A stretch of DNA of 45,546 bases from Pseudomonadota bacterium (lineage in GTDB: Bacteria; Bdellovibrionota_C; UBA2361; OMII01): positions 1 through 45,546 of the forward strand of contig JAYVGZ010000122.1 of NCBI GenBank assembly GCA_043771805.1. The letters run 5' to 3'. Below are positions 5,367 to 9,981 of the stretch, piece by piece. The notes beneath the pieces are model-generated. The model saw nothing but the letters and a program-made list of their open reading frames with translations, had not been told where the DNA came from and made no database searches. The position numbers were made by a program, and so were the translations under genes. Numbering within the stretch: the stretch's first letter is position 1; every line of letters starts with the position of its first letter.

Positions 5367-5993
5367 ATGTTTACCGGAATAGTCCAGGGGCTGGCGTCGG
5401 TCTCCTCCGTTTTGCAAAAGTCGGAAGTTATCTCCCTTGGTATCTCTTTTCCGGTGGGTGCGCTTATGAGTGTTCAGCTTGGCGCCAGTATCGCGATCAA
5501 TGGATGCTGTCTCACAGTTGTTTCTGCAGAGGGTGACGAAGCCCTCTTTGATGTTGTGCAGGAAACAGCCATCCGCACTAACCTCGGTTCTCTGCAAAAG
5601 GGTGAACGGATTAATTTTGAACGATCGCTGAATTATGGGGATGAAGTAGGGGGCCACCTGGTGTCTGGCCATATTGACACGACGGGTCGGATCTCGAGGG
5701 TGGACCTCTTCGATCTGAGCCGAGACCTCACAATCACGGTGGAACCATCCTGGACCAGATTTATTTTTGCCAAGGGATACGTGGCACTCAATGGTGCAAG
5801 TCTGACCGTTGTATCAGTTGATAGGAAAGCAGGTCAAATCACTGTTTCATTGATCCCTGAGACGATTAAGCGAACAACGTTTGGAGGGTGCGCTGTGGGT
5901 TCTCTTATTAATATTGAAGTTGATAGGGCAACTCAAGCAGTTGTTAATACAGTGGAGCGAATTTTGGAGGACGGGGTAACCGACCCAAAATAG
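5367..5993 (+). CDS. ribE: riboflavin synthase alpha chain
   Basis: Hallmark N-terminus MFTGIVQG, a 208-aa two-repeat lumazine-binding architecture, and GGHLVSGHID in the second half. Confidence 0.9.
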   Translation: MFTGIVQGLASVSSVLQKSEVISLGISFPVGALMSVQLGASIAINGCCLTVVSAEGDEALFDVVQETAIRTNLGSLQKGERINFERSLNYGDEVGGHLVSGHIDTTGRISRVDLFDLSRDLTITVEPSWTRFIFAKGYVALNGASLTVVSVDRKAGQITVSLIPETIKRTTFGGCAVGSLINIEVDRATQAVVNTVERILEDGVTDPK

Positions 5994-6211
5994 CTTTTGA
6001 ACTTTATACGAATAAGGATCTACACTGAGACGTCCAGTTCGTTGTTAGAATGTCCGACATCCTAAGTTTCTAGTTTGTACTCTCTTCTTACTTGATTTTT
6101 TGAAAGGAGAAGTCGAGTTAGTTTGCGGGGTATTTTGGGGTACGTAGTATCCCATGATAGCTCGCTTCGACGGATGTGAGATGTTTAGTGTTACTCAATA
6201 TGAAAGGTACT

Positions 6212-6421
6212 ATGACAAAAAATAATGTTCTTTCCTCTTTCTCAGCTCTTTTACTTGGTGCAATTTTCAGCGTTGGTCTGATTGCAGCTCCTTCTATCGC
6301 TTTCGCTGGCGACCATAAGTGCAGCGGCGAAAAGAAGTGCAGCGGCGAGCACAAGTGCAGTGGTGAGAAGAAGTGCAGTGGTGAGAAAGATCATCATGAC
6401 AAAGATCACCACGACAAGTAA
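6212..6421 (+). CDS. secreted Cys/His-repeat peptide (putative metal-binding peptide or RiPP-like precursor)
   Basis: A gaaagg RBS precedes the ATG at 6212. Signal peptide MTKNNVLSSFSALLLGAIFSVGLIAAPSIAFA with an AXA cleavage site. The mature 37-mer is GD(HKCSGE)(KKCSGE)(HKCSGE)(KKCSGE)KDHHDKDHHDK. The ORF track starts it at 6176. Confidence 0.7.
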   Translation: MTKNNVLSSFSALLLGAIFSVGLIAAPSIAFAGDHKCSGEKKCSGEHKCSGEKKCSGEKDHHDKDHHDK

Positions 6422-6441
6422 TCAGCCTAGCTGATTCAAAA

Positions 6442-6507
6442 GCCGCTCTACCTCGATACCAGGCAGTCCCTTTAGACTCTCAGGAACTTAGGTAGGGCGG
6501 TTTTTTA
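6442..6507. terminator. candidate bidirectional terminator hairpin between convergent genes
   Basis: gccgctctacc (6442-6452) pairs with ggtagggcgg (6491-6500) with one wobble, followed by tttttt. The loop is long (about 38 nt), so this is not a textbook intrinsic terminator. Confidence 0.35.
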
Positions 6508-6514
6508 TTCGCAG

Positions 6515-6901
6515 CTACGTTTCATCAAAGACTGCAATAGGTCGATTTGAACTGTCGACAGCGACCATCACCACCTCAGCCGATGTCACCCGGTGAGTCT
6601 GAATTGCATCTACACCTCGTTGGGCATCCACTTCTACACGGATGGAAATGGATGATTTCCCCACCTTTATCGTATCGCAATAGAAGCTGACCGCGTCACC
6701 AACATAGACCGGAGAAATAAACTCTACCTCACGCATGACTTTTGTAACGTACTTGCGCGGTGCAACCGAGCGGGCATGTTGGCCGGCAGCCAAATCGATG
6801 AGGCTTAAAATATGGCCTCCGAAGATGCTTCCGAGTGCGTTAGTATCACGTGGCATCATGATTGACCTGATTGCTGGATTTCTGGGGCATGCTTCGGTCA
6901 T
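6515..6901 (-). CDS. acyl-CoA thioesterase, hotdog fold (YciA-like)
   Basis: MMPRDTNALGSIFGGHILSLIDLAAG is typical of YciA-type thioesterases. I placed the start at the internal MTEACP Met, because the longer track ORF (to 6970) would overlap the divergent gene. Confidence 0.8.
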   Translation of the reverse strand: MTEACPRNPAIRSIMMPRDTNALGSIFGGHILSLIDLAAGQHARSVAPRKYVTKVMREVEFISPVYVGDAVSFYCDTIKVGKSSISIRVEVDAQRGVDAIQTHRVTSAEVVMVAVDSSNRPIAVFDET

Positions 6902-6925
6902 AGAGGGCTCCGTAAAAGTGAGAAT

Positions 6926-8752
6926 GTGAGCGGGAAAGAAGTAACACAATTTGAAGATAGTAGCAGCCATTCACTCGGTAGCACGCTTCCGTGGTTAGTG
7001 TTGCTTGCGGGGGCCACCCTGGCGGTCCTTCTGCCCATTGGGTGGTTGGTTGGCACCGGTCGGGTATTTACTGCTTTCTTTTTAGTCCACGGTGTTGTGT
7101 TCCTCTCAGCAGTAGTTTTTAGCCTACTCCTAACTGCTCGACTTACTAAAAGCTCTCGGATTTTAACTGGATTTAGCAGCTTCTTTTTTCTGGTGGTGTT
7201 GGTTCAGTGTGCGAGGCTTGCAACGCTTCCGATCACAGCGACTGATGCTCTCGTGCACCACCTAGCAGTCCCGAAGTGGTGGTGGAAGGCCGGTTTTATT
7301 CACGAAATTTCCTGGCACGAATGGTCCTACTATCCAATGCTCCTCAATCTTGGATATTTAGGCATGCTGCAAATGGGCTTTACTTCGTATGCAGCATTCT
7401 ATCATTTGGGATACTTCGTGATTTTGATCGGGCTCGTAGCTCTCTGTGCGCGTTCTCTGTCGGATGATCATCGAGTGACCCTCCTCTCTGCCGTGCTCTT
7501 AATTTCATTGCCCGTATTTCTGAGGTTGGCCACTGTACCGCTTGTAGATCTCGGGTTAGCGGTGTTTTCTCTTCTTGCTGTTTTTTTCTTGGCACGGGCC
7601 ATTTCTTACCGGCATGTCGTGTCACCTCGGGCTCGGGTTTGGAACTTTCTCGCGGCCGGCGCCGCCCTTGGTTTCGCCGCGAGCACTAAGTTAAACGGAG
7701 GGCTTTACGCGGCCCTCTTTCTTGCTGCGATCGCTCTATCGATTGGGCAGAAACGCATTCAGCTTAGACACGGAATCATACTCGCTTTGGCGGCACTTCT
7801 GGTCTACGTCCCTTGGCTTGTGCGGAATGCCTGCTGGACTGGAAATCCGCTCTACCCCCTTTTCAAATCCTCACTAGGGGGCCCTCAACTTCTTCTCCCG
7901 GGCGCCCCAGTAGGGCTACCACCTCTTCTCCATCGAATGACCGTTTATGGTGAGAGTATGGTCGAGGTTTTACTTCTACCAGTTCGCATTTTCTTAGGAG
8001 GGCACGATAACGACCCGAGACAGTTTGACGGATCGCTTACCCCGCTTCTGCTGCTTGGTCTCATGACAGTTGCAATTCAGCGCGAGTGGTTCGGAAAGGT
8101 ATTCGTTGGGGGGCTCTCCATCGTTTACATTTGTGTTGCGGTCGTCGTTTCCTCGGCGCGAGTGAGATATCTTGCTCCCGTCGTGCCAAGCCTCTGTGTT
8201 TTCGCGGGCTGTGGTTGGAACGCTTTCGGTCTACGCTTTGGCGCGCGCCTTCGACAGGGTTCCCTGGCCGTGGCCGTGCTTGTATCTCTTGTAACGGCGG
8301 GCAACTATCTCTTCTTTACCCTACCAACCGAATCGGGGCGCGCCTTCTTCGCGGGAAAGCTTTCGCGTGCGAGCTACCTAGCCTTTGAAATACCTGAATA
8401 CGAACTAATCGCGTACGTTAACGAGAAGCTGCCGAAGAACTCGCGACTGTATCTTCTCAATACGAGCAATCCGTTCTTTTACTTCGATCGCGAGGTTATC
8501 TCGCGCGGCTACTACTCGGCCAATGAATTGGTGTCTTGGCTCCGGGCGGGGAAGACACCTCAGGAAATTCAGGCAGCTTTCCATGAGCTGCAGGTCACAC
8601 ACCTCTTCGTCCATTCCAGGCGCCTTCAGGATATTCTTGTGGCGACTTTGACTGCCGATCAGCTTGCGACGTGGAATGAATTCTCCAAGACCTATCTGAG
8701 CGGGGTCGTCACCTCCGGTGATTTTTCATTGTGGCGGGTCGTGTCGCCATGA
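6926..8752 (+). CDS. polytopic GT-C-fold membrane glycosyltransferase candidate (ArnT/PMT_2-like)
   Basis: 608 aa with about 12 TM helices. An Asp-containing first periplasmic loop (TATDALVHHLAVPKWW) and a soluble C-terminal domain. Translationally coupled (ATGA) to a GT4 enzyme. Confidence 0.5.
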   Translation: MSGKEVTQFEDSSSHSLGSTLPWLVLLAGATLAVLLPIGWLVGTGRVFTAFFLVHGVVFLSAVVFSLLLTARLTKSSRILTGFSSFFFLVVLVQCARLATLPITATDALVHHLAVPKWWWKAGFIHEISWHEWSYYPMLLNLGYLGMLQMGFTSYAAFYHLGYFVILIGLVALCARSLSDDHRVTLLSAVLLISLPVFLRLATVPLVDLGLAVFSLLAVFFLARAISYRHVVSPRARVWNFLAAGAALGFAASTKLNGGLYAALFLAAIALSIGQKRIQLRHGIILALAALLVYVPWLVRNACWTGNPLYPLFKSSLGGPQLLLPGAPVGLPPLLHRMTVYGESMVEVLLLPVRIFLGGHDNDPRQFDGSLTPLLLLGLMTVAIQREWFGKVFVGGLSIVYICVAVVVSSARVRYLAPVVPSLCVFAGCGWNAFGLRFGARLRQGSLAVAVLVSLVTAGNYLFFTLPTESGRAFFAGKLSRASYLAFEIPEYELIAYVNEKLPKNSRLYLLNTSNPFFYFDREVISRGYYSANELVSWLRAGKTPQEIQAAFHELQVTHLFVHSRRLQDILVATLTADQLATWNEFSKTYLSGVVTSGDFSLWRVVSP

Positions 8753-9981
8753 AGATAGCTGTGTTTTCAACTTCTTTTCCGCGGTTTGAGGGCGATGATG
8801 CTGGGGTCTTTGTGGAACGCATGGTGCAGGCTTTCTCCACCATTGGGCTCTCTGGAGTGGTGTTCGTCCCTCGAGATAGGGGCGAAGTCGATGGGAATAT
8901 CGGCGCGTTCAAGGTGCATCGATTTAGGTATACGTTATTCGGTCGCGGCCGACTTGCCTTTGGTGCAGGAATAATGCCGAACATTCGGGCGGCACCTTTG
9001 TGTGTGACGCAGGCACCAGGATTATTGGCTGGTTTTTTTATCTCAGCCTTTCAGAGTCGAGAAGGCTTAGATCTCGTTCACGCCAATTGGCTTATTACAG
9101 CGATCCCAGCGATGGCTTTTGCATGGTGTCGGGGCACGCCCTACGTAGTGACCACGCGAGGCGAAGACCTCCGATTGCTTCGGTCCATGTTTTTTCGTCT
9201 CGTATTGGCGATTCCGCTGAAAAGAGCCTCGCGAATCGTTACCGTTGGAAAATCTGTCGGCGAGGAGTTGGAGCAGTACTATCCAAGATTAGCAAATCGC
9301 CTCGTCACCATCGAAAATGGGGTGACCTTACGCTGCCCGACTTATGACGAAATCAACGCCTTCAAAAAGGCTAGGGCAATCACCGCGGAATCGGAATACC
9401 TTGTATTCGTAGGCTCTCTCATTCCCCGAAAGCAGATCGAAGTACTTATTGAGGCGCTCAGTAAGGTGAGTCGTAGTGACGTAGTGCTGTTGCTGTGTGG
9501 TCGAATGGATGATCAGAATTACGTGCACAATCTTCGCGAGCTCATTCAGCAGCTGGGACTGGAGTTGCGGGTGAGGTTCGAGGGCGCTGTGCGTTCAAAT
9601 GACATCGCACTGTATTTGGCAACCGCCGTTGGATACATTTCAGCCTCCTCATTTGAAGGCCGACCAAACTCAGTACTTGAGGCGATGGCTGCTGGACTGC
9701 CGGTGCTCTTATCCGACATACCGGCTCACCAAGAGATGATCCAACCGGATGAATCCGGATTGCTTTTCAGCGACGCTGATGAAGCAGCTCGTGCAATTGA
9801 GAGTATTCTTGACAGTCCTCAGTTAAGAGACACTTTGGGTTTGGCAGCGGCGGAAGCTGTTCGATCTCAATCCTGGGAAGAGAGTGCAAAGAGCTATCAA
9901 AATCTCTTTTCGGAGATTCTTGGGAGAGAGGGGACCTCAGTACAATCCGGCGAGCTTAAACCCAATACCCGCGGCAACTAG
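8749..9981 (+). CDS. GT4-family (GT-B) glycosyltransferase
   Basis: E-x7-E motif FEGRPNSVLEAMAAGLPVL and N-terminus MKIAVFSTSFP. The start was moved to the ATG at 8749, which overlaps the upstream stop. Confidence 0.85.
   Translation: MKIAVFSTSFPRFEGDDAGVFVERMVQAFSTIGLSGVVFVPRDRGEVDGNIGAFKVHRFRYTLFGRGRLAFGAGIMPNIRAAPLCVTQAPGLLAGFFISAFQSREGLDLVHANWLITAIPAMAFAWCRGTPYVVTTRGEDLRLLRSMFFRLVLAIPLKRASRIVTVGKSVGEELEQYYPRLANRLVTIENGVTLRCPTYDEINAFKKARAITAESEYLVFVGSLIPRKQIEVLIEALSKVSRSDVVLLLCGRMDDQNYVHNLRELIQQLGLELRVRFEGAVRSNDIALYLATAVGYISASSFEGRPNSVLEAMAAGLPVLLSDIPAHQEMIQPDESGLLFSDADEAARAIESILDSPQLRDTLGLAAAEAVRSQSWEESAKSYQNLFSEILGREGTSVQSGELKPNTRGN

Follow-up and report, generated by a model that had tools for sequence, protein, structure and literature searches.

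A short secreted peptide encoded in the window, by which we mean the whole 45,546-nt stretch of DNA analysed here, is best read as an orphaned precursor of the Lys-Cys captophorin/bufferin type, the enzymes of which have been lost and which, kept by selection, acts on metal in its unmodified form (probability about 0.6). The gene would descend from the precursor (‘A’) gene of a three-gene cassette of the captophorin/bufferin/oxazolin kind, Lys-Cys repeat group, with an MNIO/DUF692 oxidase and a DUF2063-fold partner as its other two products. Such cassettes have been described for bufferins, oxazolin and captophorins (PMC11626156, PMC11252979, PMC13097082, PMC12452194), and the MNIO chemistry converts Cys into 5-thiooxazole, giving high-affinity Cu sites (PMC11626156, PMC13097082). 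Precursor genes seldom occur in genomes that have no MNIO gene; such orphans may function unmodified or may be dead (PMC12452194).

The peptide gene, its repeats and its family

An open frame is present at 6176..6421 on the forward strand, and its listed start, adopted in the earlier note, is the GTG at 6176. The frame is real but this codon is probably not the start, because the N-terminus found in all the homologues, M-[ST]-K-[KN]-N, aligns with the ATG at 6212. Translation from this ATG, the most likely start, to the stop codon at 6419-6421 gives a 69-aa product. The conserved AAGG core of a Shine-Dalgarno-like sequence lies 4-7 nt 5′ of the ATG, in agreement with the earlier proposal that the gene has its own ribosome-binding site (Table 1). 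By inspection, the signal peptide shows a Lys-containing n-region, a hydrophobic core and an AFA cleavage motif, and the layout M-x-K-K-N...SLSAL..G..AG.G...P..A.A is kept family-wide (alignment A1). The signal peptide ending in AFA and the 37-aa mature part described in the earlier note were thus recovered, and from this conserved layout we infer Sec export and cleavage after AFA. A chance open reading frame was ruled out by the conserved homologues and the low dN/dS reported below.

Table 1 Features at and around the peptide gene (window positions unless a locus is named)
Feature	Position	Strand	Basis
ribE (riboflavin synthase), conserved left flank of the cassette site	5367..5993	+	Pfam Lum_binding, E 3e-43
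Upstream block TTCGTTGT..GA..G.CC.ACATCCTA, conserved among peptide-only lineages	6040..6070	+	Alignments A3, A6
Shine-Dalgarno-like GAAAGG, ahead of ATG 6212	6202..6207	+	AAGG core at the same distance in 6/6 aligned homologous loci
Predicted Sec-type signal peptide, 32 aa (MTKNNVLSSFSALLLGAIFSVGLIAAPSIAFA)	6212..6307	+	Inspection of sequence
Predicted mature 37-aa peptide GDHKCSGEKKCSGEHKCSGEKKCSGEKDHHDKDHHDK	6308..6418	+	Sequence, Tandem Repeats Finder, homologue alignment
Junction where relatives carry the MNIO and partner genes; 93 nt, no remnant of either	6422..6514	.	Gene order, tblastn
Long hairpin, 16-bp outer stem, A4 before, U6 after	6438..6505	.	RNA fold
YciA-like hotdog-fold acyl-CoA thioesterase, conserved right flank	6515..6970	-	Pfam 4HBT, E 1e-13; NCBIfam YciA, E 2e-21
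Glutaredoxin-family gene (P0001-type lineages)	L056:4770-5255; L061:4768-5253; L083:3721-4206		

The mature peptide is made of GD, four (H/K)KCSGE units (HKCSGE, KKCSGE, HKCSGE and KKCSGE in turn; 6314-6385) and a KDHHDKDHHDK tail (6386-6418), so that the four six-residue repeats and two DHHDK units reported earlier were found again both by reading the sequence and with Tandem Repeats Finder. The latter returned a period of 18 (4.1 copies, 6317-6390), one of 36 (2.2 copies, 6308-6385) and one of 15 (2.4 copies, 6382-6417). Ser-Gly is encoded by AGC-GGC in units 1-2 and by AGT-GGT in units 3-4, which had been taken as a sign of conservation at the peptide level. This point holds, as all six differences between the two 36-nt blocks, read from the sequence, are synonymous. 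The peptide is highly charged and carries four thiols spaced C-x5-C together with six histidines, and its predicted N-terminus, Gly-Asp-His, is of the NH2-X-X-His type, known as the ATCUN pattern for binding Cu(II)/Ni(II). His occupies mature position 3 in 9 of the 15 aligned members with a predicted AXA site (alignment A1), and the motif K-C-[SN]-G-[ED] is conserved among the homologues.

Apart from a chance Toxin_20 match, Pfam and NCBIfam scans of the peptide returned no family at E <= 10, the Pfam scan gave no match to DUF2282 (PF10048), and four homologues scanned with the Pfam and NCBIfam models had no match either. A search of protein collections nevertheless yielded 10 homologues with the same signal peptide and KCSG[ED] repeats (phmmer E-values down to 8e-11), and of the order's 91 species genomes, 24 encode such a peptide. 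The earlier note had called the peptide an orphan and had made its reading depend on homologues with conserved Cys spacing. Such homologues exist in the numbers just given; ‘orphan’ is therefore right for the missing enzyme genes and wrong for the peptide itself, and scans with the models of Pfam and NCBIfam, a check of the kind which the note had suggested, returned no family.

In every one of the 23 other peptide-bearing genomes of the order, the peptide gene is followed at a distance of 75-302 nt, with no change of contig or strand, by a PF05114 MNIO gene. When 185,579 species genomes were scanned with a pattern derived from the peptide, 37 loci came up, hosted by Bdellovibrionota, Myxococcota, Planctomycetota/Phycisphaerae, Bradymonadia and Hydrogenedentes, and an MNIO gene is directly downstream at 32 of them. 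Among the loci with no MNIO, L036 and L038 were rejected as wrong-frame matches in GC-rich DNA and L055 as a different Cys-rich protein. L035 and L039 encode lipoprotein-type KKC-repeat proteins (L035:1486-1764, L039:3908-4225), with a lipobox Cys and repeats such as KKCCSE/KKCSGE/KKCAGD, and no MNIO was found within their 1-4 kb of downstream sequence; the genome of L035 has its MNIO cassette at another locus, L026. These two are candidates for a second kind of precursor, unlinked or orphan.

The MNIO of the relatives (~285 aa) matched PF05114 with an E-value of 4e-95; with the NCBIfam models, it scored about 250 bits on HvfB and 303-325 bits on BufB, for which the cut-off is 310. Its ~300-aa partner gave faint DUF2063/HvfC sequence matches, those to DUF2063 in Pfam being sub-threshold in 6 of 9 members, and a profile search with it against PDB sequences returned nothing meaningful. 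Because the sequence searches remained sub-threshold, the partner was identified by fold search. Its AlphaFold model (pLDDT 89.6) had only three significant PDB matches, namely 3DEE and two TglI chains (8HI7/8HCI), where 3DEE is NGO1945, the DUF2063 partner of the gonophorin cluster, and TglI is the partner of the MNIO TglH. Judged by this model, the partner is a DUF2063-fold protein. Based on the MNIO model scores and the partner fold match, the relatives carry a bona fide precursor-MNIO-partner cassette with a BufB-like MNIO. The earlier likening of the peptide to HvfA and bufferin precursors was well placed, since its homologues sit directly upstream of exactly such a pair of genes. In some enzyme-linked homologues (G001, G003, G014, G016; L009, L013-L015), Cys-free KKADTSD/KKADSSE units are found between KCSG units; the repeat array therefore appears to evolve by unit gain and Cys loss with the enzymes present.

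The cassette site and its missing enzyme genes

Gene order was compared across the loci of ten relatives. The order is peptide gene, MNIO gene, partner gene and then a convergent hotdog thioesterase gene, which in some loci follows after other genes. In relative G001 the order is ccmB-ccmC-engB-ribE-peptide-MNIO-partner-thioesterase and in the window it is ccmB-ccmC-engB-ribE-peptide-thioesterase, that is, the order of G001 minus exactly the MNIO and partner genes. The two enzyme genes are certainly absent from their native site. They were also sought in the whole genome to which the window belongs, where neither PF05114 (MNIO/DUF692) nor PF09836 (DUF2063) had a match and where tblastn gave a best E-value of 0.44 with the MNIOs of four relatives and of 0.04 with the partner proteins of five. 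The lack of DUF692 and DUF2063 genes that had been noted for the window thus extends to the whole assembly by both HMM and tblastn searches. As this assembly is a MAG (3.66 Mb in 638 contigs, 87% complete), absence from the genome as a whole is likely rather than proven. Most likely, the MNIO and partner genes were lost cleanly, between the peptide stop codon and the convergent thioesterase gene, in an ancestor of the window. An assembly artefact at the junction was ruled out by the same layout in five independent assemblies of related lineages.

Close relatives differ at this chromosomal site, which may hold the full cassette, hold the peptide gene only or be empty. The position of ribE is identical in these three states, and that of the thioesterase gene, convergent with the peptide gene where there is one, is common to all of them. 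In the empty state, seen in sister-genus genomes, those without the peptide are also without the MNIO, and ribE or engB is directly followed by the thioesterase gene. The peptide-only state is found in P0001, P0002, P0012 and P0015, the closest database homologues, which come from several metagenomes and read ribE-peptide-thioesterase(-)-GT-C with no enzyme genes at the locus. Beyond the window this state is known from metagenome contigs, P0001 having been read on 20 of them; the contig of P0004 ends right after the peptide gene and its locus does not assign it to a state. The peptide-only layout is therefore common to the window and at least four other uncultured lineages.

The CcmA, CcmB, CcmC, EngB, RibE and thioesterase sequences were concatenated (1211 columns) and used to infer a maximum-likelihood tree, with two other families as outgroup and with P0001 and P0002 representing the four other peptide-only lineages. 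The window, P0001 and P0002 formed one clade with moderate support (81/81), and the sister group of this peptide-only clade was the genus in which the full and empty states occur (92/92). One ancestral loss of both enzyme genes is the most parsimonious reading of this tree, on moderate support; independent losses in the peptide-only lineages are the less parsimonious alternative. RibE and EngB are 52-55% identical between the window and the P0001-type lineages, which is a deep divergence. In the latter, unit 2 reads KKEEGE and one of four Cys is lost, so the number of Cys is not strictly constrained.

Two upstream blocks (6040-6070 and 6177-6196) are kept in the peptide-only lineages, where the synonymous sites of neighbouring genes are saturated, when the window is compared with the upstream regions of L056, L061 and L083. 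The first of them ends in TAAGTT in the window and in TATAAT in P0001-type lineages and is a possible promoter or 5′ leader element; as a promoter it could give a leader of about 140 nt. An Rfam search of 5800-6700 gave no match, and we make no claim for an upstream RNA element since the consensus fold of the leader shows no covariation support (covariation term -0.19).

The downstream hairpin of the earlier note proved to be real, with a folding energy of -37.3 kcal/mol and z = -4.9 (0/200 shuffles fold as well), and a similar hairpin (z = -4.7) is located 3′ of the peptide gene in L056. Lying between the convergent peptide and thioesterase genes, it is probably a terminator-like element, and it looks bidirectional because A4 precedes and U6 follows it. 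A terminator/promoter scan of 5900-7000 gave no match, the hairpin having been missed by this simple scan because its loop is long.

The true start of the thioesterase gene is probably internal, near 6901, and the listed 151-aa frame over-extended at its N-terminus, because the homologues are 117-128 aa long; in its 151-aa form the frame also extends over the beginning of the GT-C gene at 6926. Overall, the neighbourhood in the window consists of ccm, engB, ribE, thioesterase and glycosyltransferase genes and holds no metal-homeostasis genes. Downstream of the thioesterase gene (6926-9981), the genes for a PMT-family GT-C (608 aa) and a GT4 glycosyltransferase have syntenic counterparts in the peptide-only lineages, as well as in other families of the order (G038, G040, G039), and in the sister genus they are replaced by other genes. 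In P0001-type lineages, a 161-aa glutaredoxin-family gene is found between engB and ribE, which the window does not have.

Selection on the peptide gene and its possible function

In order to describe selection on the peptide gene, dN, dS and dN/dS were obtained from comparisons of P0001, P0002 and P0015, and pS from all pairs, including the window. The peptide gene showed a dN of 0.04-0.07, no higher than that of engB, and a dS of 0.36-0.61 against saturated values of 1.1 to >3 in the flanking genes, with dN/dS at 0.11-0.15. Its pS was 0.29-0.55 against 0.63-0.85 in the flanking genes (binomial p 4e-3 to 9e-9), and this gap persists despite the predominance of two-fold degenerate codons in the peptide. 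Across the variants, the remaining units retain all their Cys and Gly residues, and Ser varies to Asn. From the low dN/dS together with the low pS it follows that the amino-acid sequence is conserved and that synonymous sites are more constrained than those of the neighbours. These rates indicate that the peptide gene is under purifying selection in the peptide-only lineages. The low synonymous divergence could reflect high expression, with a strong codon bias, or else some constraint on the RNA itself.

A decaying relic, left behind after loss of the cassette and no longer expressed or functional, is among the possibilities named for orphan precursors (PMC12452194), and the unit without Cys (KKEEGE) in P0001-type lineages would fit such decay. 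We consider it very improbable here: at least five lineages, between which the synonymous sites of the flanks are saturated, have kept the open frame, signal peptide, Shine-Dalgarno sequence and terminator intact, and this persistence across the divergence argues against a neutral relic, as do the dN/dS and dN values given above. Related genomes that dispense with the system, moreover, lose all three genes and are left with ribE followed by the thioesterase gene. The peptide might instead still be a RiPP precursor acted upon in trans, either by an MNIO and partner or by a non-homologous cysteine-modifying enzyme encoded elsewhere. An MNIO pair could sit in the missing part of the 87% complete assembly, the K-C-[SN]-G-[ED] motif shows the same degree of conservation that it has in enzyme-linked relatives, as if still read by an enzyme, and L035 offers the example of a second, unlinked KC-repeat gene in a genome that has its MNIO cassette at L026. 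Set against this are the 3.66 Mb of sequence in which neither an MNIO nor a DUF2063 gene gave a noteworthy E-value, the adjacency of the MNIO in 23/23 genomes of the order and at 32 loci elsewhere with not one case of relocation, and a clean two-gene loss at a syntenic site repeated in five lineages, which together make modification in trans unlikely, if less so than decay. The earlier note had offered an unmodified metal buffer and modification by enzymes encoded elsewhere as alternatives; the former is favoured, though not decisively. What favours the unmodified role is the syntenic deletion of the enzyme genes combined with the shared layout in at least five lineages and purifying selection.

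An unmodified peptide could also have been retained for a role that does not involve metal. The peptide could, for example, be a periplasmic thiol/redox peptide tied to the adjacent cytochrome c maturation genes, a substrate of the neighbouring PMT-like GT-C glycosyltransferase, with one Ser per repeat, or a secreted factor for predation. It draws on the conserved synteny, with ccmFABCD upstream and the PMT-family GT-C and GT4 genes downstream, on the absence of metal genes nearby and on the host being a Bdellovibrionota MAG. The synteny is, however, uninformative on the peptide, because identical flanking genes surround the full and the empty states, and the Cys/His/Asp/Glu composition, the X-X-His N-terminus and the descent from a metallophore family would all point to metal binding. 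We hold a non-metal role to be the least improbable of the alternatives, at long odds nonetheless.

According to the preferred reading of an orphaned precursor that acts unmodified, the ancestor of the window and of at least four other uncultured Bdellovibrionota lineages would have lost both enzyme genes, and purifying selection would have preserved the peptide gene while the lineages diverged deeply (to about 52% identity in ribE). Since the gene has been kept under selection without the enzymes, its function would be independent of the conversion of cysteine into thiooxazole. Exported by Sec and cleaved after AFA, the disordered, highly charged 37-aa peptide would bind Cu, Zn or Ni in the periplasm through thiolate and imidazole ligands, drawing on its four C-x5-C thiols, six His and Gly-Asp-His N-terminus. 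By composition and ancestry, a lower-affinity periplasmic metal buffer or chaperone with ordinary, unmodified Cys/His ligands is somewhat better than an even bet. Unmodified HvfA provides a measure of what such a peptide may achieve, as it still retains about 2.2 Cu(I) per peptide but loses the competition for Cu(I) to BCA, and disulfides form between its cysteines (PMC11252979). By analogy, the peptide described here would bind copper much more weakly if unmodified, and its thiols may be tied up in the oxidising periplasm. Copper protection in Caulobacter needs the enzymes (PMC11626156).

Comparison with known systems and significance

The closest known counterparts are the oxazolin precursor HvfA (hvfABC, Haemophilus influenzae) and fontiphorin FonA / gonophorin, members of the Lys-Cys (EGKCG) group of captophorins (PMC11252979, PMC13097082). 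In common with these, the window peptide has a Sec signal peptide and short tandem Lys-Cys repeats in which small residues and an acidic residue follow the Cys, it has no leader peptide in the classical RiPP sense, and the genes of its homologues likewise lie immediately 5′ of those for an MNIO and a DUF2063-fold partner. Its repeat unit is a 6-mer, KCSG[ED][KH] (C-x5-C), in which Ser follows the Cys, in contrast to the 5-mer EGKCG (C-x4-C) of HvfA, and the peptide is much shorter (37 aa mature) and has His-rich ends. By score, the MNIO of its relatives is closer to BufB than to HvfB, and both enzyme genes are absent from its own assembly. The family is found in Bdellovibrionota, whereas published surveys concentrate on Pseudomonadota.

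The bufferins BufA1 (DUF2282) and BufA2 (BUF_6/12Cys) of Caulobacter vibrioides, a family with a known role in periplasmic copper chelation (PMC11626156), also arise from Sec-exported precursors, and it is their type of MNIO that the relatives’ cassette encodes, with BufB scores on either side of the cut-off. BufA1 is, however, a small folded DUF2282 protein with four conserved Cys in its core and the window peptide a predicted disordered repeat peptide with no DUF2282 match, no DoxX gene was seen in the cassette of the relatives, and Caulobacter requires for function the very enzymes that the genome of the window is without. Orphan bufferin and oxazolin precursors (PMC12452194) are in the same state, that of a precursor with neither MNIO nor partner; what sets the present case apart is that one can trace the ancestral cassette and the exact site of the deletion and can show both that the orphan state is shared by a clade of five or more lineages and that the gene is under purifying selection. 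The KCSG 6-mer family also lies outside the Pfam and NCBIfam precursor models tried. A rich content of Cys/His/Asp/Glu is shared with Hpn-type His/Cys-rich metal binders and ATCUN peptides, as a functional analogy and not by homology.

Of the features by which captophorin precursors are recognised, the peptide has the signal peptide (by inspection), the Lys-Cys tandem repeats and homologues upstream of an MNIO gene; an MNIO gene, a gene for a DUF2063/RRE partner (PME type 1) and a match to a curated model are lacking. Because its assembly has neither the MNIO nor the partner gene, we file it on its sequence as a homologue of captophorin precursors and not as a demonstrated RiPP.

MNIO-made thiooxazole metallophores, comprising bufferins, oxazolin and captophorins, are a newly recognised and very widespread class, to which this work adds a KCSG[ED] 6-mer precursor family that is accompanied by MNIO and partner genes in Bdellovibrionota, Myxococcota and Planctomycetota. 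The orphan 37-mer and its enzyme-linked homologues in G001 or G007 make a defined pair for gauging what modification adds. Conversion into 5-thiooxazole amounts to -4 Da per Cys and brings a ~305 nm chromophore. The locus is a clean natural experiment on whether enzyme-less precursors are dead or act unmodified, and in one clade it argues for unmodified action of the orphan precursor. That a freshwater Bdellovibrionota clade has turned a RiPP precursor into a stand-alone product, acting via unmodified thiols and imidazoles, is in our estimation evenly balanced; if true, nature would here provide an example of a RiPP core peptide that has gained, or brought to light, a function free of modification.
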